The notes: a model not told the origin generated them from the letters alone. DNA of 63,874 nucleotides, filler included, from Craspedostauros australis (GCA_030167865.1; 6 parts of 6 records of this genome joined end to end with filler, not necessarily neighbours in it); one strand, 5' to 3'; counted from the whole stretch's first letter, positions 1 to 60,842 are shown. Made by a program: numbers and translations.

Positions 1-1623
1 CCCACAAAGATCTGATCCGAGTTCCGACCATCTTCGTCTTCCGTTCCAGATGATTTGGCGTAGGGACCAACTCAGAGTTGTATCTACCACCTCGACTTTG
101 CTCACAAGGGTAAGCCCTGTCCTGAAGCCCATTCGCAGCCAAGGTGTCGCACTTGCGCATCGAATGCCTTCACAAATACCGAGGGAACAGAATGCTCCAT
201 GTGCACCCAGGTTCTCCGATACGAGGGGGACAAGACAGGGAAGAGAGGGTATCCAAGGCGGTGAAAGTGCTCCTTCAGCTTGATCGGAGAGGTCGGAGTG
301 GAACACAGAGACGGAGACAGAGACAGAGAAGAAGACGAAGACGATGACGAAGGGAAAGAGCTAACTAAGTGGTGCCACCCCACTATCACAACGCCGATCG
401 CGAGACTGTGTCAGATGAACCAAAGGTTTTCTTGATGACGTTGGTGTCCAAAGAAAGAGAGAGGGAGGGAGAGAGAGAGTGTGTGTGTCACGCCGCGAAC
501 TGAGCCAGGCAAGAGTCATGTTTGGCCTTGCGGAGAGCTCACACATGCGATGCTGGATGCCTTTGACGCAGGCCCAGTCAGCTCCTACGGAACTCAGAAC
601 GAAGTCTCTTTTGGTGAAGCAGACCCTTGCACCATGGACAATCGAGGGTGAACCATACATCCTGCCGTGCGCAAATCGCAGTGTGACTGACTGACCACTG
701 TCGCGGCAGTTTCTCACGGAACAGCACCCAATCCGCACTTTGTGATCGGCGGCTTTGGTCAACGTATTCAACTCTGATGGACCTCTCCCTTGGATCATGT
801 CCGCTCACGATCGATCCATCCCAAGTCCATAATGATTGCAAACACTTGCTTCCCAAGAGCGTGATGGTTTCGTATCATCGAACCAGCTTCATGTTTGAAG
901 CACCAATTACAAGCGAATAGAGCGATTGAGGACGCGCCGGTGTTTCCAATTAAACAGTCCCAACAAGCCTTGATTGCTGCTGTTGTTCTTCGTTCGGAAT
1001 AGTCCATTGTTCTCGATCCACTTTGGGCTCGTCTGCGATTCCATTCCATTCTGCTTCTGTCCCATCACCAATACAGGTAGTTACTCTCATTCCCCGTTTC
1101 TTTCTTCTCCTCACGATTTCGTCCAAAGATTTTGCGGATGAGAGCGTCTGCGTGTCTGATTTCTCTCCATCCGCAAAACAGAGACGGCTTCACGCCACCC
1201 ATGTGACCAACCATCGCACCCCCTCTCTGGGCTTGCATGAGTATTGCAGGCAAAGTCGCAGAGGCGCGAGTATCGGTAGTCGTACCCGCACCATGCTCGG
1301 CAATTTGCCAGAGTGTCTGTACTCTCCTCTGCCATACCAACAAACGCACTTGTCTGCCTCTCTGAAGGGCTTGTTGTCTTTCGGAACGGTTCTGCTTCTT
1401 GGCGTTTGACATGAAAAGCGATCCCTTCGTATCTTGTTACGGTGCTGGAAGAGTGAGCCCGCAGTACGTGACAATTATGCACGAAAAAATCCTAGTTGCG
1501 GCTTGGGGGAAGACGGTGTCCATCATCGTCACCCCTCTCTGCGCTCGTGCAAGCATTTGCAGAGACAAGACATCGGGGGCATTCATGAGCGTTTCATCTG
1601 CAGTCGCTCTGCACCAATACTTC

Positions 1624-1650
1624 AGAGAGAGAGAGAGAGAGAGAGAGAGA
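1624..1650. repeat. (AG)n microsatellite
   Basis: Uninterrupted AG dinucleotide run visible in the sequence. Confidence 0.9.
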
Positions 1651-1885
1651 TTCGTCTGTGGGTGCTCTAACGTATTCATGACATGCGTCGGATTTATCTG
1701 TGGATGTGACTTCCCTGCAAGTGCGTCCGCATCTCGGATGTCTCGCAACGAATGAGAGAGGATAGAGCACGCAAAGCAGCAAAACTGTGCAACATCTCCT
1801 GAAGGAATGCACCAAATTCGAGGCACTGTATCTCTGGAGGCTTGTCTGCAATTATGCGCTATCTTTGTAAGGCGATGCGACACAT

Positions 1886-2243
1886 TGTTAAAATAGCGCG
1901 CTGCGGAATCGAACCACGGAGCCAGTCCACGCCGTGCATGAACACAAGAAATTAACGCTTATAACCCATGTCGCGACACCCTCCCTAATTCTTGGATTCA
2001 TGCCCTTGAGCCCCCCTATCATGAGGACCCCCCCACACTCTATCTTTATACTGCCGCTGTAGGCAGTCGGCAAGTTTCGGGTGTTTCTGTGTGTTTTTGT
2101 CGCAGGGGTGGGTACCAGCCGACGGAATCGAACCTTAGGCCACGCTACCATGTTAAAATAGCGCGCTGCGGAATCGAACCACGGAGCCAGTCCACGCCGT
2201 GCATGAACACAAGAAATTAACGCTTATAACCCATGTCGCGACA
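1886..2243 (-). mobile_element. Miniature non-autonomous LTR retrotransposon (TRIM-like), 358 bp
   Basis: Two identical 93-bp direct repeats (1886-1978, 2151-2243) with TG...CA ends. 6-bp TSD ACACAT at 1880-1885 and 2244-2249. On the minus strand, PBS TGGTAGCGTGG lies directly after the 5' LTR (2150-2140) and purine tract AGGGAGGG directly before the 3' LTR (1986-1979). The 172-bp interior has no recognisable retroelement coding sequence. Confidence 0.92.
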
Positions 2244-4042
2244 ACACATGCCGCAGTCTGGATCTTGGAGACGCAGCCGCCTGTTTCTGTTTGGCTCTCG
2301 CTTGCTATCAAATCGAGCGCAATGGTCTCCAATCGTTCGTATCGGAGGATCTGCGACCGCAGGACACCTACCAGGATCAGCAGATCGGGTATGCCTTGAC
2401 CGCACAGTATGTCGTATCGTTCCTGCGCTGTGAGCGGAATGCAGCTGCTGTCGATCGCGTCTTCGCGGTTGCTCGGGTTCTCTCCGTCGTCAGGACGGAC
2501 GAAGATGGCCCGCCATCGTTGCTCTCGGTGAAGAAGCTTCTGTTTCTTGAGTTCCAAAGCACTAGCCGTCGGGTTGCCTTGGCTGTGGCGAGTCATCTCG
2601 TACTCATCAATTGCAGCGCTCCATTGTGCAACGGGCATCCAATCCAGTGTAAGGGCAGGGCCCTGGATCACTTCCTCAAGCCCAAGAGTTGTCGGCATCT
2701 CTCGCACTGTGACTGTCGAGAAGTGTACGAGTTGATCGATGGCGTCGTTGTCTTCTCCAGGACCGTGGACTGGCGTGTCGCATTCGTGGAGGACCATCTT
2801 TGGTTTATTCCCTTTGATGCTGCCACGTGAGATAACAGCCCCATCCCCGCTTGGTCCTGTCCACTGCAGCGCCGTCACGTCCTTCCTGACGAGTGAAGGT
2901 CCCAAGCCGGACTCGCTCTCGCCACAGCGCTCTCCATCCCTCTCCTGCTGTTCAGCATTGTTGCGACGTTGGTGAACTCCAACTCCAGGTTGGATATTGA
3001 CTTTGTGGAAACGGATGCTGTCAATAGGGCGCTGTTGGCTACCCTCACTGTGGCCGTCGTCGCTGCCGCATCCCTCCAACCCACCATAGCCGTCATCACA
3101 TTCGTAGCCGTCGTATTCGTCACCCCAACTGAACGAGCTCTCGAGATTGTCGGTTTCCGACGCGTCGTCTGCTGGTGGCCCCACACGACGCAGCAGCGGG
3201 GGCTCGGGTGGCAATTGGAAGTCTGCATCACATCTACGCGCGTCGCGACTTGCGCTGCATGCAGTCATGGTCTTGTCATGGTCCGCTGCGTCCGCAGCGA
3301 AAAAGTTCATGACGGATGTCGGTGATTTCCTCTGCGTTCGGGATGACGGGAACCTCGAGATGCATGGAGAAGGCGAAAGCCCCATCACGGTCGGCACGAT
3401 GAGGGATGTCACGGAATAGCAATGGGTGCTTTCGTCCAGACCGTTGCAAGAGTAGGCGTCTCTCGGATAACGCTGTTCATGCTTGGAAGTGATAGTGCGA
3501 GATCTTGTGTTACTGTGGTTGCTGCTACCCACGCTGATGACTGGAGTATCCTCCGTTCGAATCGTGTCGTCGTTCATGCCATCATGACTACCATTGTACG
3601 TGCTGTAGTCGTCGTCACTATTGCCGATGGCATCAAGAGCAGCTATCGTTTCGGTGTCCGTGATGCTGCTATGCGTGGTGTGCGCGGAGATGTGGGATTG
3701 GATAATGCTGCCGCCCCACTGAGGTTGCCTCGCTGCACGCGATGTATGTGATACGTGCGACAGCACCGATTTGCTGGAACTCTGCCGCAGCGTATCGAGC
3801 TTGCTTTGTGCGAGTTGGTACATGATCCACCAGCTGCGGACAGTGCTCGCAAAAGGTTCCTTTTGTTGGTTGTGTTGCTGCTGATGCTTGAGCTTGATGG
3901 TTGGGAATTGTGGGAAATTCGTCACGGCTCGAGTGGTTGCTATGTTGGCGTCGCAGGAGTATCGCATGAGTGCAGGTTGGTGCTGATGTGCAAGAACATG
4001 GTGTTGCTGTACCATACGATGGGCAAGTCTCGCTTCTTTCAT
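2153..4042 (-). CDS. VxF/CSRNP-N-like module protein, paralog 1; C-terminus altered by the TRIM insertion
   Basis: 629-aa ORF with a low-complexity N-terminal part. Module: LVHFSTVTVREMPTTLG...GPALTLDW...IDEYE...PLTAQERYDIL..QGI...RLET. The last ~30 codons come from the LTR. Confidence 0.8.
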   Translation of the reverse strand: MKEARLAHRMVQQHHVLAHQHQPALMRYSCDANIATTRAVTNFPQFPTIKLKHQQQHNQQKEPFASTVRSWWIMYQLAQSKLDTLRQSSSKSVLSHVSHTSRAARQPQWGGSIIQSHISAHTTHSSITDTETIAALDAIGNSDDDYSTYNGSHDGMNDDTIRTEDTPVISVGSSNHSNTRSRTITSKHEQRYPRDAYSCNGLDESTHCYSVTSLIVPTVMGLSPSPCISRFPSSRTQRKSPTSVMNFFAADAADHDKTMTACSASRDARRCDADFQLPPEPPLLRRVGPPADDASETDNLESSFSWGDEYDGYECDDGYGGLEGCGSDDGHSEGSQQRPIDSIRFHKVNIQPGVGVHQRRNNAEQQERDGERCGESESGLGPSLVRKDVTALQWTGPSGDGAVISRGSIKGNKPKMVLHECDTPVHGPGEDNDAIDQLVHFSTVTVREMPTTLGLEEVIQGPALTLDWMPVAQWSAAIDEYEMTRHSQGNPTASALELKKQKLLHREQRWRAIFVRPDDGENPSNREDAIDSSCIPLTAQERYDILCGQGIPDLLILVGVLRSQILRYERLETIALDLIASESQTETGGCVSKIQTAACVVATWVISVNFLCSCTAWTGSVVRFRSALF

Positions 4043-18324: not shown

Positions 18325-18605
18325 CAGGAACACCCAACATTTTGTCCGATTTTCACTTTTCTAGCTCGTGACCTAATTTACCGGGACTTAATACACAGCG
18401 TTGAGACAGAACAGTGAATCGCCTGAAATCCTGAAAATCATAGATAGGGTTACGCTATTGCTCTTCAATTGTCGTTGGTCCAGGCACGGAGAGACCGGAC
18501 AAAACCGGAGAAACTAGGTCGGACCGGACAGACCGGACAAAATGACCGGACAAACCGGACAGACCGGACAAAACGACCGGACAGACCGGACAAACCGGAC
18601 AAAAC
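18325..18605. mobile_element. DNA-transposon terminus, copy 1, with subterminal ACCGGACA array
   Basis: Starts CAGGAACACCCAACATTTTGTCCG, is near-identical to 18751 onward, then becomes an ACCGGACA(A/G) tandem array that runs into a gap. Confidence 0.65.
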
Positions 18606-18750
18606 NNNNNNNNNNNNNNNNNNNNNNNNNNNNNNNNNNNNNNNNNNNNNNNNNNCAGTAGCACCAGTCCCAATGCTGGAGGCATGGACCAAGACGACAG
18701 CCAGATGTTCCCCGTGGTGGACTAGTCGCGCTTCTCTCACTCCTTCTCCA

Positions 18751-19458
18751 CAGGAACACCCAACATTTTGTCCGATTTTCACTTTTCTAGCTCGTGACCT
18801 AATTTACCGGGACTTAATAAACTGCATTGAGACAGAAAAGTGAATCGCCTGAAATCCTGAAAATCGTAGATAGGGTTACGCTATTTCTCTTCAATTGTCG
18901 TTGGTCCAGGCACGGAAGACCGGACAAAAGCGGAGAAACTAGGCCAGACCGGACAAAATGACCGGACAAACCGGACAAAACGACCGGACAGACCGGACAA
19001 ACCGGACAAAATGACCGGACATAACGGACAAAACAAACGAATCAACCGGACAGACCGGACAAAACTCAAGAATTTATCGAACTATTTAACGGACGGTTAA
19101 TCGAATATAACGGACATTTGGATCGTGAAGAAACAGACAAAACTACTTCGCACGGAGTGACGCAAGCCAACCCAAACCACAAGAACAGATGAGTGAAACA
19201 AGACAACAAGCCAGCTTCGCACTGAAGTATGGCATCATGCCAATGCAAATGTCCGGTTCTATTGCATTATGTGTGTTGTTCTTATTACTGTTTTGTGGTA
19301 TGACATCAAATCTCAAAGAGTTCTGCTCCATCATCCCGATGGTATTGCACAATGACACAAATGGCTTCAAACAAATGCTTCTGCTTTTCTGTGCCATGCA
19401 AAAAGTGATCTTCAGCACGCTGAAGAACTCCAGTCTCTCATTGAAGGTCTCATGATGC
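18751..19458 (-). mobile_element. DNA-transposon terminus, copy 2, with ACCGGACA array and the 3' end of the transposase
   Basis: Same terminus as 18325, with an array at ~18919-19062. 19227-19458 duplicates the transposase 3' end found at 19593-19824, with a few substitutions. Confidence 0.7.
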
Positions 19459-19592
19459 NNNNNNNNNNNNNNNNNNNNNNNNNNNNNNNNNNNNNNNNNN
19501 NNNNNNNNGATTGGTATGCTTAGTTTGGTTGTAATCGAAGAAAAAGTGCCACTCTACTTTACAAACGGTTGGTCGACTCACTCACATGGCTC

Positions 19593-20500
19593 GTATGGCA
19601 TCATGCCAATGCAAATGTCCAGTTCTATTGCATTATGTGTGTTGTTCTTATTACTGTTTTGTGGTATGACATCAAATCTCAAAGAGTTCTGCTCCATCAT
19701 CCTGATGGTATTGCACAATGACACAAATGGCTTCAAACACATGCTTCTGCTTTTCTGTGCCATGCAAAAAGTGATCTNCAGCACGCTGAAGAACTCCAGT
19801 CTCTCATTGAAGGTCTCATGATGCAACCGTGCTCTGCTCTTGAAGTTTTCAAGTTCTGGCCCATCGAACTCATTTGGTGTTCACATCATATTCTTTTTCA
19901 TACGACTCGTCCTGTGCCCACGATCAGCAATGATGACTTTCCCACCTGTGATCTGATGCAACAATCCTTCACAACAAATAGTCAAGTCATGTTTACCTCA
20001 TTGGTGGAGCAGTCATGTTTACCTCATTGGTGGAGCCCGTGGATCCAAACACACTTTAAGTGGTACACAGTGATTGCGATCTCGTATTTGAGAGCACCGT
20101 GGTTGAACTTCTTCGAGCCCCATGCCAGATCTGTGTTGAGTGTTGAGTGTTTCTGCTCCCATACATGAAAATATGTGCTGTCAACTGTGGCAATGAAAGC
20201 TGTTCCCTCTTGATCATTCAATGAGCTTGGCCAAACAGTCATGTCAGCTTTCATTGCTGCAATCATTTTGATCCAGCACCATAGATGATTCCATATTGCA
20301 TACTATCAAAATATCCCATATGCTGCATCAAGGATGTTGGCATTCTTTGGATTGGTCCATAGAAAGCATAGAACTGCAAGGAACATTCAGAAGCCTCTTC
20401 CAGTGTTGTCATATTGTGATATCTTTGCTACGGAAGTAGTCGTTGTGTGCATGTCATCCCAAATACCTGAAATAGTTTCCGGCCAAGATGCATAGTGAGA
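19593..20500 (-). pseudogene. Degenerate DDE transposase (PIF/Harbinger-ISL2EU, DDE_Tnp_4-like)
   Basis: Fragments FIATVDSTYFHVWE, SKKFNHGALKYEIAI..CVWIHG, KVIIADRGH and RARLHHETFNERLEFF follow the D-D-E motif order of this family. In-frame stops and a 26-bp tandem duplication (19985-20036) break the frame. Confidence 0.8.
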
Positions 20501-20558
20501 TCGGAACATGGTATNNNNNNNNNNNNNNNNNNNNNNNNNNNNNNNNNNNNNNNNNNNN

Positions 20559-20570
20559 TTAATTAATTAA
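20559..20570. other. Artificial contig-joining linker
   Basis: TTAATTAATTAA (stops in all six frames) flanked by N runs. Confidence 0.97.
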
Positions 20571-20668
20571 NNNNNNNNNNNNNNNNNNNNNNNNNNNNNN
20601 NNNNNNNNNNNNNNCCAAACGCTCCTCCAAAACCGACTTTTCTCAATGGATTCCTGAAAAAGATCCAA

Positions 20669-23600
20669 GTGAAAGCGCTCGGGACTGTGGAGTGGCACGT
20701 TCTGGATGTGACGGGCAGCCCGCGTACGCTACGACTACCCGCCTTCCATGTGCCTCAATCACGCGTCAAGCTCATCAGCACGTCAAGCCTCTTGGAAGAA
20801 TACCCTGGTGAGACCATCACCTTTGACAAGACCTCCTGCAAACTCAGCGGAATTAAGGGAAGCGACAACCGAAACGCAATCATCGCGATCTACAAGAAGA
20901 CGACGAAGCTCCCCACCTCAACTGGATATGGCTCGGACAACATCCACGACCTTCCATCGGCACTCTCCTCAATCGTCTCAACTGTCTCGGAACACAACGT
21001 GAATATATCCGAACCGCAAAAAGAACTCCTTCGATGGCATTATCGCCTCGGACACTTATCCTTCGGTCGAGTGAAGTTCCTATTGCGATCGGGTGTGCTC
21101 ACAGGGTCCGAAGCATCAAAGAAGATGCACACGGCAGCTGCCAAAGTGATGAGCCTCCCCCTCTGCGCTGCGTGTCAGTTCGGAAAACTGCACCGACGCC
21201 CATCACCAGGTATAACTCAGCATGTTGTCCGTGACAGACAAGGAGCCCTACGCACCGATCACCTGTTCCCTGGCCAACAAGTATCCGTTGACCACTTCAT
21301 CGGACGCACACCAGGACGCCTCTTCTCAGGACGAGGAAAAGGCGACCCAACCGACATGCACAAGGGAGGAGCCATCTTCGTAGACCATGCTTCAGGTTAC
21401 ATCCACGTGGAACCGGTGGCCGCCCTCACGACTCATGCTACTCTAGAAGCAAAAGAGAAGTTTGAGCTTATGTGCCGCGATGTAGGCGTACCCGTCAGAT
21501 CCTACCTCTCGGACAACGCCACTACATTCACATCGCCAGAATACACGAGACACCTCGAGGCCTTCCATCAGGTCCACCGGTTCGCCGGTGTTGGGGCGCA
21601 TCACCACAACGGGATAGCTGAAAGAAGCATCCGAACTATTGTGTCAATGGCTCGGACCATGATGATGCACCAAAGCATCCACTGGCCAGACATCTTCGAT
21701 GCGCAACTGTGGCCGATGGCCGTGGTGCACGCGGCTTACATCTACAACCGTGTCCCTAACCCAGCAACAGGGCTAACCCCCTACGATATACTTGCTCGTA
21801 TCCGACTTCCGCTCAAGCAACTACACAACTTGCATGTGTGGGGCAGCCCCGTTTATGTACTGAACAAAGCGCTGGCTGATGGACGCAAGATCCCGCGCTG
21901 GGAACCAAGAGGCGAACGATACGTGAACATGGGCCTCTCAACAAAGCACGCGTCCACGGTCCCTCTAGTACTGTCGTTGCGGACTGGATCTATCACACCG
22001 CAGTTTCATGCTGTGTTCGACGACTGGTTCGCCACCATATCAACGGACCCCAAACACTTGCCCGACTATCAGTCTGATGAATGGACGCGGATGTTTGGAG
22101 ACACGACGTTTCAGTACCCATTTGACGAAGATGATGTGGAAGCCATGGAACAAGAGGACACCTTCGCGTCGGACGCCGTCGATCAGGAACGCCTGCGACG
22201 CAATGATGCTCCGGTTCCAGGAACTTCTCCGCCAGTTGTATACCAACCACCACCCGAAAGGCGAGAAGCAGGAACGGCTCCGGTACCCCCAGGCGAAGAG
22301 CTCCCGGTAACTCCGCCAATGGTTGACCCCCTCAGCGATTCCTTGGCCTCTCGGATGCAAGCCTCAGAGGGAGAGGTGCCACGAGTACAGCCAACTGAGG
22401 GAGCCGCAAAGAGTTCGCTAGAAGTCGCACCAGCAGAGCAATTAACTCCACGGGTTCCACGACCGGAACCCACACCGGTACCGCCGATCACCTTGAAGCA
22501 GGAACCGGCATCCCAAGTCTACACGCGAACATCCTCTCCAGTCCCCGTTATAGACGAAGCAGTCCCAACACAGAGGCCGCGGAGCACGCGAGCGCGCAAG
22601 CAACCCCTGCGTTTCACTTACCAACGCTTGGGAGGCAAAGCCGCGTGGCTGGATGACGAGGACGCCGAAGAGTACTACCTCTGCCCAGCGGTAGCCAGCA
22701 TGCATGAGGACGAACATGATGAGACAGTGCTCCAATTGCACCCTGACTCACCCTCTCTGATGAAATTCTCACACGCCATTCTCGACTGTCTCAAAACAAT
22801 TGAACCTCTCCAACGAAAAGGCACCGACTCTCTCTCCATCGATCTTCACCAATTCAAGGTGGACGCCCACTACCTACTACGTCGATTGAGGCTACGTTTC
22901 AAGACTTTGAATCCGCACGCCCCAAACTGTTCGCTCCCACCACTTGAGCCGAAGCACGACAACCGCAAAACGGAAGCCTACATCAACATGGCTGATTGGT
23001 GGGTCCCCGACCCCCACACCATGAACGACGAAGGCCTCGTCGACTTCGATGAGGTCTACGAGGACCTCTACAACGACATGACGGCGTACTTCGACGAGGG
23101 TCTTAATCAACTCATCTGCAGCGAGAGCAACAGGACCCTACTGACAAACTACGCAGTAGAGAAGCTCATCAACAAGCTTAGCGAATTCATCCGCACCGGT
23201 GCTACAAGCCCTGACTTCGACGCCCTGGACTTCCTGCGACACGCAAAGAGGGGCGGATGGCACAAAGACGATATCGAGACTTCGCTACGTGCGGGTGTGC
23301 TCCCACCAAAGAGCAACACAACCGCTAGCACCCTGTGGAAGCGAGCACAGTCTGTGTGGACCGAGATTGGTCATCACCCTCGTGCTCGCCTGATGTACGA
23401 ACTGTTCCGACGCCAGATCACCACTCTGCGTCCTGGACCATGGCCGTTGCCGAATGAACGCGATGTGAACGAATTTGCTCTGGAATTGTGGCCTTTCAAC
23501 GCGAAACCTTTGTTAACAGAGCCCAACACACGAAATTCGAACAACAAAACATCACCACATTCTCTCCTGCGTGTCGACCCAACAACGATCCTGGACACCA

Positions 23601-25366
23601 ACAACATTATCCCGTCAACTGACTGGGTCAACATCGAACAACACGCCTACGCTGCATCACTTGTCGAACCCAGTTCTGACACGACCAACTACCCTATCTA
23701 CGTGGACGACCACATGATGAGCTACTTCGTCACAGGCGGCGACTTCGACATCACGGAACGCTCAACAGCCTACAAAGCATCAACCAACGATCCAGACACT
23801 CTCTCCTTCGATGAAGCCCTCAAGGACAACAACAAAGAAGAGTGGATGCAGGCTGCAAGCAAGGAGATCAAGGAACTCACCGAAAAAGGCACCTGGGAAG
23901 AAGTGGACAGAACCCGTGTCTTCGACCCAGTCTACCCTGGAACGTGGGTCTTTCGTCGCAAGCGCCTCCCAGATGGAACCATCAAGAAATACAAGGGCCG
24001 CTGGTGCTGTCGAGGCGATCTTATGAAAGAAGACGCCTCCACCTACGCTCCCGTCGTGGCATGGTCGTCTGTCCGTATCTTCCTGAGCACCGCCATCGTG
24101 ATGGGTTGGCCCACGACCTCTATCGACTTCACCAACGCCTTCGTCCAGGCCAAGATCCACAAGCCTGTCTACCTCTGCCTCCCTCGCGGATTCAAATCCA
24201 GCAAGGGCGCCAACACGTGCCTCAAGCTCAACAAAAGCTTGTACGGTTTGACTATTGCTCCCCGCCTCTGGTATGATCACCTCATCAAGGCACTTCTCGG
24301 CGAAGGATTCAAGGCATGCGATCAGGAACAATGTCTGTTCATCAAGCCGGAGATCATGATCGTGCTCTACGTTGACGACGCTGGCATCGCGTCCAAAACA
24401 CAGAAGGTGGCGGACGCATTCATCGTGTCGATGCGCGAACGTGGGTTCGAGCTCACTCGGGAAGGCAGCTTCACGGAGTTCCTGGGAATTGAGCTACTCA
24501 GGGACCCCAAGTCGGACTGCATTCATCTCCGCCAGCCAGGACTTATTCAGAAGGTTCTCGCTTCCACAAGAATGACTAACTGCAGCCCATGCCCTGTACC
24601 AACGACACAGATTCCGCTCGGAAGGGACACAGGCGGACCACTCTTCGACGAGAAGTGGAACTATCGCTCCGTCGTCGGCATGTTGCTCTATTTGACAACG
24701 AACACGCGCCCTGACCTCGCCTTCGCCGTCTCTCAAGTCGCTCGCTTCGGGCACGACCCGCGCCGCTCCCACGGAAAAGCGATCAAACGAATCATGCGCT
24801 ACCTCAAGAGCACCGAGAGCATGGGTACGATCGTCAATCCTACGGGCAAGCTCGACCTCAAGTGTTTCGTGGACGCCGACTTCGCCGGACTCTACAAGCG
24901 CGAAGACGACACGAGCGCAACTTCCGTCACTTCCCGCACCGGATACCTCATCACATTGGGTGGGTGCCCGCTGATCTGGAAGTCAAAACTCCAGACGGAG
25001 ATCGCTCTCTCCACCATGGAAGCGGAATACGCGGCCCTGTCCCTGGCTATGCGCGCACTCATCCCCATCCAACAGCTCATCCGCCAAGTCATCGACAACG
25101 CCGGCACAAGCATGCCGCTGCACACGCAGCTCCAATGTACGGTGTTTGAGGACAACCAGGGATGTATTGCGCTCGCCACCAACCATCAACCTACGGCACG
25201 CACTAAACACTTCCTGACCAAGTGGCACTTCTTCTGGTACTGGGTCAAGGCAGGGTTCATTTGCATCACACACATCGCCACAACCGAACAACCCGTCGAC
25301 ATCTTCACAAAGGGGCTGGCGGTCGTTCTCTTCGAGTATCTGCGCAAGCAGATTATGGGCTGGTAA
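20669..25366 (+). mobile_element. pol: Ty1/copia LTR retrotransposon pol (integrase-RT-RNase H), 5'-truncated by the contig end
   Basis: Uninterrupted 1565-aa frame. HHCC (WHYRLGH...CAAC), integrase D-D-E (VSVDHF, SDNA, NGIAER), RT YVDD, RNase H (FVDADFAG, STMEAEY, FEDN, DIFTK). The INT-RT-RH order identifies copia. Confidence 0.96.
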
Positions 25367-25438: not shown

Positions 25439-25504
25439 TTGAAGTTCAACTAAGAACCGANNNNNNNNNNNNNNNNNNNNNNNNNNNNNNNNNNNNNNNN
25501 NNNN

Positions 25505-25516
25505 TTAATTAATTAA
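25505..25516. other. Artificial contig-joining linker
   Basis: TTAATTAATTAA flanked by N runs. Confidence 0.97.
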
Positions 25517-25947
25517 NNNNNNNNNNNNNNNNNNNNNNNNNNNNNNNNNNNNNNNNNNNNACGGCGGCATGAGAATGGATTTCACGAAGTGCTCCTACCC
25601 AGAGCGTATCACCATGGAACAGTTGTAAACATGAATCCGATCGAAATGGCAGCAAACACATCTACCATACGTACAAACAGTATTCTTCGCGCGGCCTGCA
25701 TACTACGAGTTGTGTGGACGGAGGAGCTTGGCAGGTTGCAATGTATTATATTACATGTGCTTCTGTGAAGACGCTATAACATGTATCATATGATGGAGTA
25801 GATTGTTCATTCTTCAATCCTCGGGCTTCGATGGCATCCCTCATCCCGTGGTCAAGGATTGTACCACGGTTTGGTGATAGACCAACATCTGCCTTCATTG
25901 TTGCTACAGGAGCTGGATGCACGAGTATCCGTACTCATTGAGTGGTC

Positions 25948-28900
25948 TCATTCAGAGCTCTTCGGCGACTTGCTTGATTTGGATGACTTGGGGGACTTGG
26001 TCTTGCTCTCCTTTGATGACTTGTCCGATTTGTATGATTTCGCCCCCTTCGTGCTGCGCATGTGAGATGGTTGGGAGGAAGGGAAGGACGACAGCGTGGA
26101 CGACGGTGTGGATGACGGCGCGGATGGCGGCATCTTCGAGTTGCCGTTGCAGAATTCCAGTGAACCCATGAAGTACTCAAAATCACCCTCGTAGAGAGGA
26201 GGGGGATTATCACCGACAACAGCACTCGCCGTTCCCGTAAAGATAGTGAATGGACAATTGTTGCAATCAATCCAGTCTGGAGGGATGGGAATGATGGTGT
26301 TCGAGAATTCATTCCCTGCTTTTGTTAGTGTATCGATACGGATGGAGATCACGTCGTCGCTTTGGGACAAAGCCAAAGGTTGGTCGAATGGAATCACGTC
26401 TGTGAATTCACCATTACCTCTGGCCTCGATCGTTCCCGATGCAATTTCTGTCCAATTCCCAGGTGCATCCCAAGTACTTGGACGGTAGAAGATTGCGAAA
26501 TTTTGGTTCCCCGTCGATGGCAGGACAAGCCTCATGCCTGTGATGTCGACACTACCCTGAATCTGAATGTCGTGTCGCACTGAAGCGACCGTGTCGTCAA
26601 AGAAGCCTCTTGGGAGACCTGCTGTTTTTGCGTCGCGGCAGGTGTCTGTTGGTGCCTGTGTGGGGCCTGCGGATGGCTGGATTGTTGGCGATGTTGTCGT
26701 AGTGGGGGAAGCAGATCCAGTTGGCATCTCGGTGCTCGAATCCCGACAGAATTCGAGGATGCCGAAGAAGAAGGGGAACTCATCGCGGAAATTGGGCGGG
26801 TTGTTTCCAACTTCGAGGCTACCTTGTCCGCTGAATACCTCGAATGGGCAGTCTGGGCAGTTGACAAAGAACTCTGGGATCACACGCGGAGATGATGAGG
26901 TAATAGTCCTCAACCTGTCGGCCATGTCAATGCGGAAGGATACAATGTCATCATCCGCAGACACCACCACGGGCTGATCAAATATGAGGGAAGGGGTGAA
27001 GCCAGACGAGTCCGTTTCTCCGTTGTTTCCTGATGCAATCTGAGTCCAGTCGCCATCGGCATCCCAGGCGCTTGGACGGAAGAAGATCGTGTATGGCATG
27101 TTGGTGAATTCAGGAGCCACGACGATCTTGATGGCGGTGAATTCGATGCTGTCCAGTATGCGAACATCGAATCTGAATGACTCAATGCGCTCATCGAAGC
27201 GAGAGGCGGCGATCGCTGTCGAATCCCACGTGCCACAAATTCCGGTTGGGACAGACGAGGGGGTCACACTCGGAACATTCGATGGAGGCGATGACATTGA
27301 TGGTGCCACAGAAACGGATGGTGTCACGGTTGGTGATCGACTGAGATCGACTTTCACGCTCACCGTCGCACACATGGGTGTGGTCGAGTCATCATCGATG
27401 TTGGATACCGAAATAACGATCCCATCCAGCAAAGACGACTGGNNNNNNNNNNNNNNNNNNNNNNNNNNNNNNNNNNNNNNNNNNNNNNNNNNTCATCATC
27501 GATGTTGGATACCGAAATAACGATCCCATCCAGCAAAGACGACTGGGCATCAATTCTGTACGATGGTTCTGTCAGGTCCAGGATGGCCTCCAGATCGGAG
27601 AATCGAGTCTCGGTGCTGTGGTCTTGTGCCCTTGTCACGAGGACCTGATCCCTGCCCAGTGGAGAATCGGCGTTGAAGCCGATGGCTCTGTTGAAGGCGA
27701 TGTAGTAGTTCAATTCACTCTCAGGATCGTCAATTCGGATGATGACGTCGAAGCTGGTGTCAGCGGGGTCATAATCGACCACTCCGCAGAGNCTTCCNTC
27801 NAAGTCGATGTNTTGACCTCCGGTGAGCAATGTGGTCTGATCGGAGTACCACCCCATCACCCAGCTCTTGGCACCTATGTGTGGTGGAGGGGCAGGCACA
27901 TGGGTAATTGTATTGAAGGGGTGGGTTTGCAGCAAGAACATGAGGGCGTGAAATGATTTGGCGCGGACGTAAGAACGAAACGATGGAGAAGGGAATGATT
28001 GGTGAGACAGTGTACGTAGAGTGTCGCATCGCATCGCATATGATGAGGTGACACGACTCCTCCTGCAACGGAATCATTTGGGCCCTGGCTCTCCACAAGG
28101 CGATGGCGCCGTAGCACTTACCGTTGTACCCTCTCTTATTGTTCAGAGTTTCATTAAAAAATGGACTAAAAACTGCTCCGCCCATCGCGCCGCTGCGGAA
28201 TAATAGTCGATGTTGGGGTCGGAATCCATTGACCGGAGGACGTCAACAACGAGGAAGAGGATACACGAAGACGGAGGTTAGATGGACTTTGAACGATAAA
28301 CAGGTTTCCTGTCATGTGATGAGGACCAGAACATAGCAGACGCGTCCAATGTGCTCTCTCCGGAGTTTGATTGTGTGCGTTCTTGTGTCCGGTTGTCCAT
28401 CCGTCCACAAAGATTGATGCAGAATGTCACAGATCGCCTCCAACCTCTCTCTCTGTCTCTGCTGGCGCATTGACTGTGCTTACCTGCGATCTCCGAACTC
28501 TTCCCCGTTCCGATTGGAAGTGCCAAGCCCAAAGTTGCGACCGAGTCCGCTGATGATGAAGCGTAGGTTGGCCGCCCAGTGCGTGCCTGGATAGTTTCTG
28601 ATACCGTTGTACACGCTGATCTTATCGCTGAAATAAGAGTACGCTGTGAATCAGTGGTGTGTCGGTTACATCGTTGCGCGCGCGTTGATAATCGAGAGAG
28701 TTTGATTCGCACGGAAGAAAGATGATATTACACGCTGGAGTGAGATGAGTTAGATAGGAGGATGATCACGGGTCGAGCTCGTCACGATACCAGTGCGTAC
28801 TGTTGATGAGGAAGATACAAGTTGTGTGGTCCTTGTTGGCACTTACAGGTCCAACCAGTTCCAAAGTCATCCAACCCGAACGGAACCAGGATCAAGAAGA

Positions 28901-32720: not shown

Positions 32721-32953
32721 GTGAACTGGAAATGGAACTATAGGCGGATCGCACCCTGAGACGATTCCCCTGCCACCACAACATTGCCAGCAAACAGACC
32801 TGCCAAATGGACACAGCCCTCTCTCCCAACACGATCATAATACTCACACATCCGTTCCCACTGTGTGCAGACATGGAGAATAAACAAGGCAGAATCAAAG
32901 CGCCCCCCCNNNNNNNNNNNNNNNNNNNNNNNNNNNNNNNNNNNNNNNNNNNN

Positions 32954-32965
32954 TTAATTAATTAA
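32954..32965. other. Artificial contig-joining linker
   Basis: TTAATTAATTAA flanked by N runs. Confidence 0.97.
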
Positions 32966-33009
32966 NNNNNNNNNNNNNNNNNNNNNNNNNNNNNNNNNNN
33001 NNNNNNNNN

Positions 33010-38047: not shown

Positions 38048-38091
38048 NNNNNNNNNNNNNNNNNNNNNNNNNNNNNNNNNNNNNNNNNNNN

Positions 38092-38103
38092 TTAATTAAT
38101 TAA
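38092..38103. other. Artificial contig-joining linker
   Basis: TTAATTAATTAA flanked by N runs. Confidence 0.97.
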
Positions 38104-38147
38104 NNNNNNNNNNNNNNNNNNNNNNNNNNNNNNNNNNNNNNNNNNNN

Positions 38148-44266: not shown

Positions 44267-47000
44267 TTATCGTGAACTTATATCACACATGGATCGTATC
44301 TGCTTCGCCAATGCGACAGGAGCGTGGTGCTCTTCCTGGTTGCCCCACCACTTCAATCGAACCGCGTACTTCTTCTTCTCACGTCGATTGCGCTGATTGC
44401 CCAGCGCTTGCATCACTTTGTTCTTTGAGCCCCTGTCACCGATTGACAGCGCAATGCAAGGCTTCAGGTTGGGTCCGATGCTACGCGTTTCCGCTTCCGC
44501 TTTCGCATCGGCCCTCTTTGCAGCTGAAGATGCCCCTGTCTCGATTGTCTTCGTCTCGCTCTTGACCCAAGCTTGGTGGCGCTTCTTCGCCTCTCTCTGT
44601 TCCTCCACTGTTGCATTCTTTTCTGTGGGCTGGATCACAAGGGCCTTCCAATTGAGGATCTTCTTGATTTCCTTCTTCATCACCTTCAGGGACGCTTCAG
44701 CGGCAATCTGATTGACTTTCGGCTCACTTGGTCTCTCTTTCATTTCGCTCAGAAGACGGTTTCCGTCCTTGTTGTTGTTCATCGTCGCTTCTGGAAACGC
44801 ATCTGCTGGGCTTGTCACGCAGTAAATGCGATGCTCACCGAATGGGATATATCGAGAAGCTCATGGAGCACTCTCTCCTTGTTCTTGCGAATCTCCTCCC
44901 ACTCCAGTCCCCCGCGTCCGGACTTGTCCTTGGCTTGGATACAGATGGTGACGAAGTTGTAATTCATGAACTTGTATCGCTTCTTCTTTCCAACAACCCT
45001 GTTGGCGGCGGCGACGACAGAATCGTATCCGTCCGCGAGATTGCTGCTGCCTTCTGCGAGGCTCGCAATTGGTGGGTAGAAAGTCTCCTTGGTTTGTTGC
45101 ATTGTCCCTTGCAAAAGCCCCATTTGAAGTCTCAACTTCCAAAGACCTTCAACGTCTCCCTGGTCGATGTCGAGTGTTGCTTCATCTCCGCCCTTCGAAG
45201 GGTTCAACGGTGTGTGCTTGATCTTTTCCAAGCCATTCCAGTTGTAGGTGCCGTTGGTGGACTGGCGACCTGTCAGGTTCGCCCAGTATTGGTCACACCG
45301 CAGATTCACGATTTTGTGTCAGTAGCATTGAGCTGCTGTCCTTGTTGCTGTCCTTGATTCAACCACATCTCGGACTTCTGGAGGTGCATGCCGCTCAACG
45401 CAAAGTCAGATGGTACCAAAATGGGGAACCAGCCCTTCAAATCGTTCCATGATCCATTGACATCATCGTCCGTGAGATCCTTGAGGCGATTCTTGCATCT
45501 TCCCATTCTCGGTGCAGACATGCCCACGTAGTCGCTGAGTATAGACTGTAGATTCTTGCGTTGATGGTCAGCAACTGCCATGGCTGCTGCGATGGAGCTA
45601 GTCACAGTCTGCATCGCGAGTGCTTCGAATGCGAATGATGGCGTTGTCTCCCATCCTCCGTCGCCATGCACCAACCTCTTGCCACCAGCCACCAGCTAGT
45701 CACACAACAATCGCGCGGCGTCGTCCATCACGAAAGGATCCTCCAGGATCGTTGCATTACCTGGCTTGGAGCTGACCATTTCATGGATGGGGTGGCCTGA
45801 GAGGAGTCCATATTTACCGACGAGAGTTCGGAGTGATACGGCTCCACCGTGGAAGTGCTTGAAGTGAATGGAATTGTCAAGAAGGTGGTCGTAGATTTCG
45901 CTGGGGCTTGAATTGAGCTTCATCTTCGTAGTGCCTTGGAACTCCACAACGGCAAGAGCTTGAGTTGCTGCTCCCATCCGTTTTTCCACATGCAGCCACA
46001 ACCCTCCCAAGCTGTTGCTCAGGATGAACGTCTCGATAACCTGGGAGATGATGCGGACTTCGTGGTAGGGGTTCATGTATGTGAGCTGCGAATCGACCAG
46101 CTCCTTGATGAGGATGGAGGTCATTCTTTGGTTGCTGTTGACGATGGTTTCGAGCAATGAGCATTCTCCAAGGTCATCGTGTGCTGGGAGCGTCTTCCGT
46201 TCGATAGCTAGGTATTCAGACAGGAGAGCTTCGCGGACTCCTCTGGTGTCTGAAGTGCCAGTTGGTTGTCGATGAAGGTAGCTTTCTGGTGCACCCCCGA
46301 CAATGTCGCCATAAGTTCCAGTTCCTCCAATCGAAAACACCACTTTGAGATGTGGTCCGTGATTGTTGGCGTGCTTGCGTTGCTTGGCACTGTTGGCTTG
46401 GCTGGCTAGACGGATCCTGATCTTCACATGTGTTCATGATGAAACGGGCCACTTGTTTGCCGAGGGAATCGTAGCTGCGGATGGTCTCCATGGCTGGGGT
46501 GGGACAGCTGAGAGCTCCATCGATTGCGACGACTATTCGAATGGTTTCGTTGATCTTACTCTTCTCATTAAAATTCTTGATCATCTTCACGATGGTTGGC
46601 AAAACGGGGTCGGCAGTGGCTGTGAGCCCGAAGATAGCGCATGTAAGCGGGTTCAGTGCTTTCTGATGTTGCGACGGTGGTTCGATGCCGCGAGGATCTG
46701 TCGGTGGAGCTTTGGCATTGGCATCGCTGATATCTTCATAAACGAAGAGCTGGATGGATATGACAGCATCTCTGTGTGGCACTCACGCAAGAAGCGCCTT
46801 TCCTTGCTGCATTGCATCTGCATCGACATCTACTTCTACATCCGCAGACATGGTTTGGCCTGATGACTTGGTTGCGGGTGGCGAAAGCGTTGAAGTCATC
46901 ATGAATGGTGTGAGTGTCATATGTGAGGCTTTGCTTCGGCGACTGGCGTTCTGTGGTGCGATGTGGCAGATCATCTCCATGTTGCTGTTGTCGTCGTTGG
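44267..47000 (-). pseudogene. Disrupted large gene with NTPase-like and PD-(D/E)xK-like nuclease motifs (Crinkler/RHS-like architecture)
   Basis: Six abutting or overlapping minus-strand ORFs joined by in-frame stops (46783-46785, 45696-45698) and frameshifts. Motifs IRIVVAIDGA, VVFSIGGTG, FAFEAL and NLADG...TICIQAKD. Confidence 0.5.
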
Positions 47001-47489: not shown

Positions 47490-49985
47490 ATGAGTACCAA
47501 TACGAGTCACATTGCGATGAAGTACACATCCACACGCGATCCATCCATCGTGTGCACCTTCGAAGAAGCTCTGCTCGGAGGATACGCGCCCGACGGTGGC
47601 CTGTTCGTGCCACAAGAGCTGCCAAACGTCGATGCGGACGTGCTCTGCAGTTGGTCGTCGCTGTCGTTCATCGAGCTGGCGTACGAAGTCCTGCGGCTCT
47701 ATGTGTCATCCAACGAGGTGCCAGATGTTGATCTGCGCGAGATCTGCCAAACCTCTTTTCAAGGCTTCCCGACGCCAGCGATCCCCATCGATAAGACGGC
47801 CGTGCCAGGGCTGCACATCGCAGAGCTCTTCCATGGGCCGACCTTCTGTTTCAAGGATGTTGGGATGCGGGCCGTCGTGAACCTGTTGGAGTACTTTGCT
47901 GACAAGCGTGGCATGCGAATCACTCTGTTGGTCTCCACAACGGGAGATACGGGGCCGGCTGCAGTGCAGGCTGTCAAGGACATCGCCGATCGACGGCAAT
48001 CCCAGTCCCAGCAATCTCCGCTGTCCATTCTGGTGCATTATCCGCAAGGTCAGATCTCTGCCATGCAGCGCAAACAACTCACGACGTTGCAGTCGCAGAA
48101 CATCCGTGTTGTAGCATACGAAGGCGGCGGCGATGACATGGATGCACCAATCAAGCGCATCCAAGCCAAGAACAAGGATTCCACTCCAGTCCGTAGTAGC
48201 AGCAGTGGTGGCAATGGTGGTAGCGTGGATGGGTCCCATCCAAAGCGCATCATCTGCGGAGTGAATAGCTACAACATTGGGCGACCGTTGATGCAAATGA
48301 CGCTTTGGGTACGTTGGGTGATGCATCAATGTGTGTATGTGTGTGCATGTGTGTACACATGAGCACGTGGACGCGTATGGAGCACTTCGACGGGACATAC
48401 GAGCTATTCCATCATACGCTTCGCTGGCATGCCTTGATCGTAGTCGTTGAAAGTGCGATGCACTCGGACGTGAATGTGGCCACGCCTGTGTATTGATCTG
48501 CTTTTTTCTGTTCACTCCACTGATCCCATCATCATCTCTCCAACATGCTCTTCAACTGTCCCACCAAAATGACCGAGTATCATTCCAAATGGTATGGTAG
48601 ATTTGGACGTATCTGCGTGTCGTGGAGGACGTTGGTATCACACCAGGAGATGCAGGTGAGTGGGTGACTGATTGAGAGCCCTCAGCGCATCCATCCATGG
48701 ACGAGAATCCACTCTTGTGGATGATGTTGCGTGTTCGCGGAAAGGCATGGCACGGCAATCCAGTTGTCGTGTGTTTCAGCGCAGGAGGTACGGAGTGGTA
48801 TGTGCTTGTTCTCTCACCACTGCCATGCCCTAACATTGCTCTCCATCGCATTTCTCATCTTCGGATTATCCGTACGTTTGTGCGACTCTATCAATGCTAT
48901 TCGCTTTCCACATGCCTACCCACTCTTTGATGTGCCTCATGATATGACGCCACGCTTCACACCTTGCTCTTCAGGATGTCCTGTCGACATGATTGTTCCA
49001 ACGGGTGCCATGGGCAACATCGCTGGCGGGTACATGGCGAAGTGCATGGGCGTGCCCATCGGTACTCTGACAGCTTCCGTCAACATCAATGACACAACGC
49101 ACGTGGCCATCCAAGATGGTGTATTTGCCAGAACGCCCACCATGCACAAGACTATCTCGGAAGCAATCAACATCCAGTTGGTGAGTTCATGTCGCATCGA
49201 AAGGAAGTGGCTGGTCTGTCATCAAGCAAGCAAGTATGCAGGCATGCAGTCAACCGACGGATCGATCAACGATCATGCGATTGGAAATTCAATCGGAAAT
49301 GCACTGAATCCTCAACACCCTTGTTGCTCCACACATCTTGTGTTTCTCCTTGTTTCTCTTTCACACACACATTCTCTATTTCTTTACCCCCATTCCTACA
49401 AATGCACAGCCATACAACTTTGAGCGCCTCCTGTTTTATTTGACGCAAGGGAATCATGCATTGGTACAGCGCTGGTACACCGAACTATCCAACTCAAACC
49501 GCATCCAACTCGACAAAGAATGGCATGCCAAGCTCTCCACCGACTTTCGCAGCGCAAGAGTGACCGACGAGGATCTATGCGCCACATTGCGCAAGGTACA
49601 CGCGCTGTCTGGATACGTTGCGGATCCTCACACGGGGGTTGCCCTGTGCGCTGCAGAACGGTTGGGATACATTCCACTTCACAACGGCAATGATGGTGAT
49701 CACCAAAACAGTCGCCGTTCTGCAAGTGACGGATCCACGCAGGATCGACCGACTGCGCTCATGGCAACCGCATCGCCGTGCAAGTTCGAGGAGGCAGTGA
49801 CAGTGGCGTTGGGTGCGAAGGTGTGGGAGGAGTACAGACAGTCCCAGTTTCCACAACGAGCGTGCGAGATCTTGGATAGCACCGAAGTCGCTCCCATTGT
49901 CTACCCATTCACGGCAGGCAAGACGTTGGAGGAAGTCCAGATGGATTGGCAACGACAAGCGGAAGATATCATCGACACGCTGTGA
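47490..49985 (+). CDS. thrC: Threonine synthase (PLP-dependent), four exons
   Basis: MKYTSTRD, APDGGLFVP, ELFHGPTFCFKD (PLP lysine), STTGDTG, NSYNIGR, VPTGAMGN, PYNFER, DPHTGV, TASPCKF. Phase-consistent exons 47490-48308, 48601-48655, 48975-49180, 49410-49985. Confidence 0.93.
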
Positions 49986-60584: not shown

Positions 60585-60628
60585 NNNNNNNNNNNNNNNN
60601 NNNNNNNNNNNNNNNNNNNNNNNNNNNN

Positions 60629-60640
60629 TTAATTAATTAA
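60629..60640. other. Artificial contig-joining linker
   Basis: TTAATTAATTAA flanked by N runs. Confidence 0.97.
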
Positions 60641-60842
60641 NNNNNNNNNNNNNNNNNNNNNNNNNNNNNNNNNNNNNNNNNNNNACCACACAACCACACG
60701 ACCACAAATCAACACGGAAGTCAACACGATGTCCCAACCGCACCTTCCTGAATTCCGCCAACTCCATCTCATAAAACCAAATCACCATCCACCTCACTCC
60801 AACTTCCTTCGAATCAACCCAACTTGACACAACAATACAACC

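Follow-up and report, generated by a model that had tools for sequence, protein, structure and literature searches.

The diatom Craspedostauros australis carries, in the DNA analysed here, a miniature long terminal repeat (LTR) retrotransposon (terminal-repeat retrotransposon in miniature, TRIM) whose LTRs and leader contain motifs typical of transfer RNA (tRNA) genes. The stretch of DNA, hereafter the window, is 63,874 nucleotides long, filler included, and joins end to end 6 parts of 6 records of the assembly GCA_030167865.1 that are not necessarily neighbours in the genome. The retrotransposon, hereafter the mini-element, is read on the minus strand, and LTR positions given below are counted in its sense direction.

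Anatomy of the mini-element and its boxes

The mini-element consists of two direct repeats of LTR size, 93 nt each at a spacing of 265 nt, and an internal part of only 172 bp that is free of gag and pol; the whole stays below 1000 bp. Its TRIM anatomy is complete, with LTRs bounded by TG and CA, a target-site duplication and a primer-binding site (PBS) as well as a polypurine tract (PPT) (Table 1). Which primer would such an element use? The primer 3' end implied by the PBS is GGCCACGCUACCA, with U72 and A73, and by the established A1:U72 rule, the sequence points to an initiator-type tRNA as the predicted primer.

Table 1. Positions of the mini-element, its parts and the scaffold joints in the window
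Feature	Position	Strand	Remarks
Whole mini-element (TRIM)	1886..2243	minus = sense	358 bp; orientation from PBS/PPT in the sequence
5' LTR	2151..2243	minus	93 bp, TG...CA; opens with the 10-nt palindrome TGTCGCGACA
3' LTR	1886..1978	minus	93 bp, TG...CA; 100% identical to the 5' LTR over 93 nt
Target-site duplication copies	1880..1885 and 2244..2249		plus-strand ACACAT; 5 bp and a further ambiguous base
PBS	2138..2150	minus	TGGTAGCGTGGCC, 13 nt; directly after the terminal CA of the 5' LTR
PPT	1979..1986	minus	AGGGAGGG; directly ahead of the 3' LTR
TATAA	2224..2228 and 1959..1963	minus	LTR 16-20
Box-A-like motif	2179..2189 and 1914..1924	minus	TGGCTCCGTGG; LTR 55-65, overlaps box B by GG
Box B / T-arm motif, 5' LTR	2170..2180	minus	GGTTCGATTCC; LTR 64-74, 0 mismatches
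Box B / T-arm motif, 3' LTR	1905..1915	minus	GGTTCGATTCC; 0 mismatches
Internal box	2124..2134	minus	GGTTCGATTCC; 3 nt after the 13-nt PBS, 0 mismatches
Internal tRNA-3'-end-like stretch	2109..2134	minus	GGTTCGATTCC, GTC, GGCTGGT, A, CCCA
Acceptor-3'-strand-like GCGCGCT with discriminator-like A	2159..2166 and 1894..1901	minus	LTR 78-85
TTTT	2155..2158 and 1890..1893	minus	LTR 86-89, where a tRNA gene has the terminator for RNA polymerase III
Five 100-nt scaffold joints	20515-20614, 25461-25560, 32910-33009, 38048-38147, 60585-60684		N44-TTAATTAATTAA-N44

The three perfect box-B motifs that the initial annotation had described in the mini-element are all present and exact. They amount to two independent boxes rather than three because both LTR boxes sit in identical repeats, so that the LTR pair carries one box twice. 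Could the boxes be a chance resemblance? The box-B form GGTTCGANNCC occurs exactly 4 times in the window against 0.47 expected, and at least 4 occurrences are reached in 0 of 100 shuffles; the fourth match lies at 46679, in ordinary sequence. The combination of the box, 11 nt and TTTT is found 2 times in the window (once per LTR) against 0.01 expected, again with 2 in 0 of 100 shuffles, and both boxes lie within 46 nt either side of the PBS in a single 358-bp element. The excess is weaker if one mismatch is allowed (5 box matches against 1.4 expected, with 5 reached by 2 of 100 shuffles), and only two of the occurrences are independent. On balance, a chance resemblance of the boxes is extremely improbable. 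A second TGGTAGCGTGG at 48218 lies within a threonine-synthase-like coding region and was set aside as a chance match.

The LTR box and the internal box have 12 nt in common (GGTTCGATTCCG), at which point the local alignment stops, and the right flanks of the two modules are unrelated beyond this 12-mer. A wider homology of the two modules was tried and rejected: it comes down to GCGTGGACT against GCGTGGCCT, which 58 of 2000 shuffles equal and which lie at unequal distances from the box. Fragments of two different tRNAs would be expected to look like this, with a perfect T-arm consensus in common and otherwise unrelated acceptor parts.

tRNA-gene geometry of the LTR and a proposed working

Read in the sense direction, the LTR presents TG, TATAA, a box-A-like motif fused to box B, a T-arm-like hairpin, an acceptor-like strand, a discriminator A, TTTT and AACA. 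The hairpin, which the initial annotation had suggested, can indeed be read from the sequence, with a stem of 4 pairs including one G.T (G62-C76, T63.G75, G64-C74 and G65-C73) around the loop TTCGATT. The box is followed by GCA, GCGCGCT (78-84), A (85), TTTT (86-89) and AACA. The TATAA upstream of the LTR box and the TTTT exactly 11 nt downstream of it, both of which had also been pointed out, were located in each LTR, and TTTT is the sole sense-strand run of at least four T in the mini-element, one per LTR. The arrangement from box B to the T run in the LTR is the register of the 3' end of a tRNA gene. The tRNA-like portion covers only about 28-44 nt, about one third of the 93-bp LTR.

Two palindromes stand in each LTR, the 10-nt TGTCGCGACA at its start (2234-2243 and 1969-1978) and the 8-nt AGCGCGCT in its tRNA-like end (2160-2167 and 1895-1902). 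These palindromes could serve as candidate sites for RNA-RNA or protein contacts.

TRIMs with a tRNA-like LTR sequence have been described as Helenus, which together with Cassandra and Ajax constitute TRIMp3 (Kojima 2024, PMC10886601; this paper and those cited below with a PMC number and a comparison are drawn on for parts of their text, tables and supplements). We propose, with a probability of roughly 45%, that the mini-element carries tRNA-derived boxes in the Helenus/TRIMp3 layout and works by analogy as has been proposed for Cassandra and Helenus. The components of this proposal differ in strength. The LTR module is probably tRNA-derived, and its service as a promoter and terminator piece for RNA polymerase III (Pol III) is a tentative suggestion by analogy. 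Judged by its sequence, the mini-element is likely to be a new, very reduced diatom member of the Helenus/TRIMp3 kind, with a membership that appears incomplete in that box A stands outside its usual spacing and the use of Pol III is inferred from related elements. The tRNA-derived LTR put forward by the initial annotation finds support in origin and layout, with the T arm, acceptor-like strand, A and T4 in the exact register of a tRNA gene, and no full tRNA is detected. The same annotation likened the LTR to a tRNA analogue of Cassandra. The layout bears out this likeness, which is not a new idea because the published Helenus/TRIMp3 elements share the layout (PMC10886601).

How might the mini-element work? 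The module would draw Pol III factors to the LTR, with TFIIIC at box B and with TFIIIB aided by the TATAA, which lies approximately 26-30 nt ahead of the start of the tRNA-like part (LTR position 46); a TATA is found at such a position in some Pol III genes. The T4 of the 3' LTR would set the 3' end of the RNA, and the T4 of the 5' LTR would be partly read through. The product, an RNA of approximately 300 nt, would be copied by the machinery of an autonomous Copia-type element using the initiator tRNA as a primer, and the new copy would insert with a 5-bp duplication. In addition, the acceptor-like strand could close a 7-bp stem between U5 and the PBS, and the box after the PBS would most simply be another T-arm fragment of tRNA type within the leader.

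Several results weigh against this proposal, and the first concern the promoter. No box A is found at tRNA spacing from the LTR box B, approximately 44 nt upstream of it. The box-A-like TGGCTCCGTGG, a motif taken without a shuffle control and with one mismatch to the box A consensus TRGCNNAGTGG, abuts box B at zero spacing rather than standing approximately 30 nt upstream; since the two boxes leave no gap, the LTR lacks a standard type-2 Pol III promoter. Moreover, unless it is leaky, the T4 of the 5' LTR would end Pol III transcription after approximately 40 nt. A 5' acceptor partner was sought in GGCGTGG (LTR 46-52), which forms 6 of 7 pairs, and was rejected, with 3792 of 5000 shuffles doing equally well; the identity of GGCGTGG to the primer strand implied by the PBS (6 of 7) is matched by 536 of 5000 shuffles.

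Searches for a complete tRNA point in the same direction. ARAGORN at default settings reports 0 tRNAs in the window and 0 in the mini-element. A whole or permuted tRNA gene was rejected: at a threshold of 80%, ARAGORN gives one implausible 89-nt "tRNA-Leu" fold, and TTTT separates the 3'-like and 5'-like halves, which is at odds with an uninterrupted tRNA gene. In Rfam (E up to 10), nothing in the mini-element comes near any gathering score. The sole match from the tRNA clan, which counts in favour of the proposal, is a partial cyano_tmRNA (16.7 and 13.6 bits, E 0.04-0.05; the gathering score is 70) that covers the T arm and the U5-PBS stem at model positions 61-117 of this permuted cyanobacterial transfer-messenger RNA; clan competition in Rfam may mask a weaker match to the tRNA model. 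The predicted folds are also ordinary. The whole element reaches a z of -1.0 against shuffles, with 15 of 100 as good, and the 114-nt leader reaches a z of -1.2, with 27 of 200 as good.

The remaining adverse results come from searches for copies and transcripts. An exact scan for the junction of LTR and PBS gives 0 hits in metagenome contigs and 0 in viral contigs, the LTR-end pattern gives 0 in prokaryote genome contigs, and the polyprotein of the Copia-type element in the window, used as a query, gives 0 loci in viral contigs. The comparison of copies consists of one genomic copy and one foreign contig, and the mini-element occurs in no run on record as RNA, the kind of the one public run that contains it being only guessed.

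Could the modules be neutral relics? They would then be fragments of tRNA or pre-tRNA that an ancestor of the element acquired through template switching of reverse transcriptase or insertion of a tRNA-derived short interspersed element (SINE) into an LTR and that have no role, with transcription by RNA polymerase II from the TATAA as in an ordinary TRIM. The truncation of the modules, their failure in every tRNA detector and the unremarkable folding are consistent with such an origin, as are the module ends, of which one is a TTTT trailer and the other is CCA-like, resembling the ends of pre-tRNA and mature tRNA. Kojima proposes that such elements arose when a SINE inserted into an LTR (PMC10886601). 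Nonetheless, the module takes up a third of an LTR that is only 93 bp long, the box consensus is perfect in both places, and many independent Helenus families have this very layout, as far as the published consensuses cited here extend. The recurrence argues for selection on the layout, and we consider neutral relics unlikely.

Relations of the modules to the primer

Seven contiguous pairs can join the acceptor-like strand of the LTR to the PBS, and LTR 75-85 followed by CCA would give 10. Compared with the primer strand that the PBS implies, the acceptor-like strand is identical at 5 of 7 positions and also has the same discriminator. This relation raises the idea that the element supplies or mimics its own primer: the LTR module, cut after the discriminator A and given CCA, would pair with the PBS of the element, either as a minihelix-like RNA of approximately 40 nt from each LTR or as the 3' end of the mini-element RNA itself. 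In a variant of this idea, the element imitates the initiator tRNA to enter the particles of its partner, with the twin T-loop boxes as the handles of the mimicry. The 10 and 7 contiguous pairs and the agreement at 5 of 7 positions speak for such a primer, and complementarity to the PBS marks a difference from Helenus, in which it was sought by Kojima and not found (PMC10886601, in the parts cited). However, the complementarity would follow without any priming role if the module derives from, or is selected against, the same tRNA end, and stems between U5 and PBS are common in retroelements. Furthermore, the 5' strand of the minihelix is the unsupported GGCGTGG. The same possibility was tested by Kojima for Helenus and rejected, as those elements lack complementarity to the PBS. 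We consider a self-supplied or mimicked primer very unlikely.

What is the role of the box that follows the PBS? As the initial annotation had it, this box lies close behind the PBS, starting 3 nt after it. The stretch that it opens stands in the same register as the LTR module, with a CCA-like end that is one base too long and with a T stem of only 3 of 5 pairs. The principal rival to tRNA-derived promoter parts, also offered by the initial annotation, is a multipartite primer-binding system, in which the boxes are extra contacts for the primer initiator tRNA; both readings can hold together. The T-loop core of eukaryotic initiator tRNAs is AUCGAA, taken from a 7-nt motif. Once the acceptor end of the primer is annealed to the PBS, the UUCGAU core of the boxes would pair with this AUCGAA, of which it is, by our own reading, the exact complement. 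In Ty1, the contacts with the primer are known as boxes 0, 1 and 2.1, and in Rous sarcoma virus (RSV) and human immunodeficiency virus (HIV), U5 contacts the T arm of the primer.

The positions of both boxes suit such contacts. With 3-5 nt between the PBS and the internal box behind it, this box stands where, in both side and distance, an annealed primer would have its T arm, and the LTR box lies 19 nt ahead of the PBS, as do retroviral contacts in U5. The 12 nt shared between the boxes, with differing flanks, are likewise in line with contacts, and tRNA contacts that extend beyond a short PBS are documented for Ty1, RSV and HIV (PMC3592414). The mini-element resembles these systems in its short PBS (10-13 nt) for the initiator tRNA and in nearby motifs that could pair with the T arm; it differs in that the motif is the sense T-arm consensus itself and flanks the PBS on either side. 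The boxes correspond exactly to the elongator-type T-arm consensus in sense and not to the antisense of the initiator T arm, and their fit comes to 6 Watson-Crick pairs, or up to 8 with wobble, a pairing open to any T-loop-like sequence since the motif is almost a palindrome. In addition, extra contacts leave the TTTT in the exact tRNA register unexplained, and 6 fungal Helenus internal consensuses that start with tggtagc, a PBS for the 3' end of the initiator tRNA, have, by eye, no box beside the PBS (PMC10886601, in the supplement as cited). An extended PBS, antisense to the T arm of the primer, was rejected, since the implied tRNA would carry a misplaced T loop. Weighing both sides, we regard a purely contact-making role of the boxes as unlikely and prefer tRNA-derived boxes in the Helenus/TRIMp3 layout.

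Known relatives, copies and surroundings

Helenus have been reported from fungi, six animal phyla and Selaginella (PMC10886601, Table 1), and the words "diatom" and "stramenopile" have 0 occurrences in the text of that paper. They are 311-1263 bp long, duplications of 5 bp accompany the fungal and plant members, of which some are primed by the initiator tRNA through its 3' end, and box A (TRGCY...YGG) and the GGTTC of box B are conserved; their transcription by Pol III was left unvalidated by Kojima. In 5 LTR consensuses compared by eye (Helenus-9_PSt, -6_PTrit, -4_PTrit, -10_PTrit and -1_SMo, from the supplement of PMC10886601), the order is box B, 11 nt, then within 0-13 nt a T run, and finally a short tail and CA. 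The mini-element is likewise a miniature LTR element with a PBS and a PPT, has a length within the published range and carries in the 3' part of its LTR a tRNA-like sequence in which box B contains GGTTC; a T run comes next, and a short tail leads to CA. With some fungal Helenus and the plant one, it shares the 5-bp duplication and a PBS predicted for the 3' end of the initiator tRNA.

The mini-element differs from Helenus, as represented in the parts of PMC10886601 cited, in its diatom host and in its LTR of 93 bp, compared with 120 bp in Selaginella and 111-112 bp in others in the supplement. Its tRNA-like part of approximately 28-44 nt has no anticodon arm and a box A that abuts box B, and tRNA detectors remain silent on it. 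Two further differences are the complementarity of its tRNA-like 3' strand to its PBS and the second box beside the PBS. Internal boxes nevertheless have some precedent, given that the internal parts of three fungal families, Helenus-2_PGr, Helenus-3_PSt and LTR-1_PTrit, contain, by eye, T-arm-like motifs of the types GGGTTCAATCCC and GGGTTCAAT(T/C)CC, which lie far from the PBS; the internal part of LTR-1_PTrit derives from a Copia leader (PMC10886601, Figure 4).

If confirmed on other copies of the family, the mini-element would extend the tRNA-carrying TRIMs (Helenus/TRIMp3) to diatoms, i.e. to stramenopiles. Among them it would, moreover, be of very small size, with a 93-bp LTR in which the tRNA part is pared down to the T arm, acceptor strand and terminator, and such a reduction helps to define what these elements need from a tRNA gene. 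That the tRNA-like LTR end is complementary to the PBS, unlike in the Helenus families published in PMC10886601 as far as cited, provides a testable link between the module and priming. Furthermore, elements of this kind scatter box-B (TFIIIC-type) sites and tRNA-like fragments, which can confuse the annotation of tRNAs and small RNAs.

Other small retroelements share single features with the mini-element. Cassandra carries a 5S ribosomal RNA (rRNA) sequence with a Pol III promoter and terminator in its LTRs (PMC7215508). Both elements thus have a fragment of a small Pol III gene with a terminator in a TRIM LTR and a PBS for the initiator tRNA, which follows the fragment after a few nucleotides (8 nt in ferns and 8 nt in the mini-element). 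Unlike Cassandra, a 5S-bearing plant element of 565-860 bp, the mini-element has a tRNA-type fragment, and a 5S rRNA is without a match in Rfam at E up to 10 over 1500-2700 or 2095-2250. With tRNA-derived SINEs (SINE2), it would share the use of a tRNA-derived Pol III module by a non-autonomous retroelement, but it has LTRs, a PBS, a PPT and a 5-bp duplication and no A-rich tail or tail derived from a long interspersed element. Retrozymes are also small non-autonomous LTR elements with a functional-RNA motif in the LTR and a PBS for tRNA-Met; their motif is a hammerhead and their LTRs measure 300-400 bp (PMC5680766), whereas the mini-element has no hammerhead ribozyme match in Rfam at E up to 10.

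Counts of miniature LTR elements already exist for one diatom genome. In Phaeodactylum tricornutum, a putative class of TRIMs and large retrotransposon derivatives (TRIM/LARD) comprises 27 copies and 7,291 bp (PMC5859163). The likeness to the mini-element is one of description only, and no tRNA-like LTR is described in that paper as cited. The diatom retrotransposon paper of Maumus 2009 has no text on a primer-binding site, a tRNA primer or TRIMs. By titles and abstracts, the literature on Helenus/TRIMp3 since 2024 reports no such element from a diatom, and that on non-autonomous LTR elements or TRIMs of diatoms reports no tRNA-type LTR.

The mini-element matches only itself when compared with the window by blastn, and it is multi-copy in one public run (X1, from organism A). 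In this run, 0.54 of the sampled words of the mini-element are present. Among the contigs that fall on 1300-3000, 11 lie on the mini-element, with a word depth of 30-147 each among the 8 listed, and the depth is 0 on both flanks; several variant contigs cover 1986-2074. The depth, the variants and the occurrence of the LTR in at least two contexts suggest that the mini-element is a repeated family there. One X1 contig of 199 nt (2045-2243) covers the 5' LTR together with the internal box and departs from the mini-element at three positions (2093, 2101 and 2199). The boxes, T4 and PBS are free of these differences, an outcome with a chance of approximately 15%, and the sparing of the boxes in this contig therefore says little. 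In two further runs (X2 and X3), no contig matches the mini-element.

One X1 contig has the start of the LTR in common with the mini-element, leaves the LTR at 1978 and continues into 255 nt of a different sequence. In the sense direction of the element, this sequence has a purine-rich tract at its end, just ahead of the LTR, and another internal region may end here, perhaps that of an autonomous partner.

A search for a tRNA-Met pattern with the acceptor stem implied by the PBS yielded one metagenome locus, which was rejected as a eukaryotic initiator tRNA; it is AT-rich and has an encoded CCA. At this locus (L001, 101-254), which is unrelated to the window, the AT-rich tRNA-Met is followed 5 nt on by a tRNA-Val that also bears GGTTCGATTCC.

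At the site of insertion, an open reading frame (ORF) on the minus strand runs over 2244-4042 and continues in 1851-1885, the mini-element having inserted approximately 10 codons before its stop. Without the element and one copy of the duplication, the ORF encodes 608 amino acids; with the element, it encodes 629 amino acids with a different tail. The insertion of the mini-element thus alters the last codons of a gene. The product of this ORF has no match in Pfam.

The partner of the mini-element was not identified in the window. A Ty1/Copia-type polyprotein ORF of 1565 amino acids with RVT_2 and gag_pre-integrase domains lies on the plus strand at 20669-25366, with assembly gaps on both sides that hide its PBS and, apart from a visible LTR start, its LTRs. 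This element is a candidate partner; its leader falls in a gap, and after a GAGAGGGAGAG tract its 3' LTR opens with TGAAGTTCAAC, unlike the LTR of the mini-element.

Elsewhere in the window, the best matches of the threonine-synthase-like exon show 50-57% identity, and the named ones among the better-scoring matches are all from diatoms, a protein similarity by which the window belongs to a diatom. Two 50-N gaps have near-identical flanks (19227-19458 and 19593-19824 for the gap at 19459-19508; 27389-27442 and 27493-27546 for the gap at 27443-27492), and both look like unmerged assembly overlaps. Arrays of short repeats of the CGGACAAA and CGGACAGAC types, with spacings of 9 and 13 nt, occupy 18494-19082 and sit in two copies of a unit of approximately 426 nt that flank the 50-N gap at 18606-18655.

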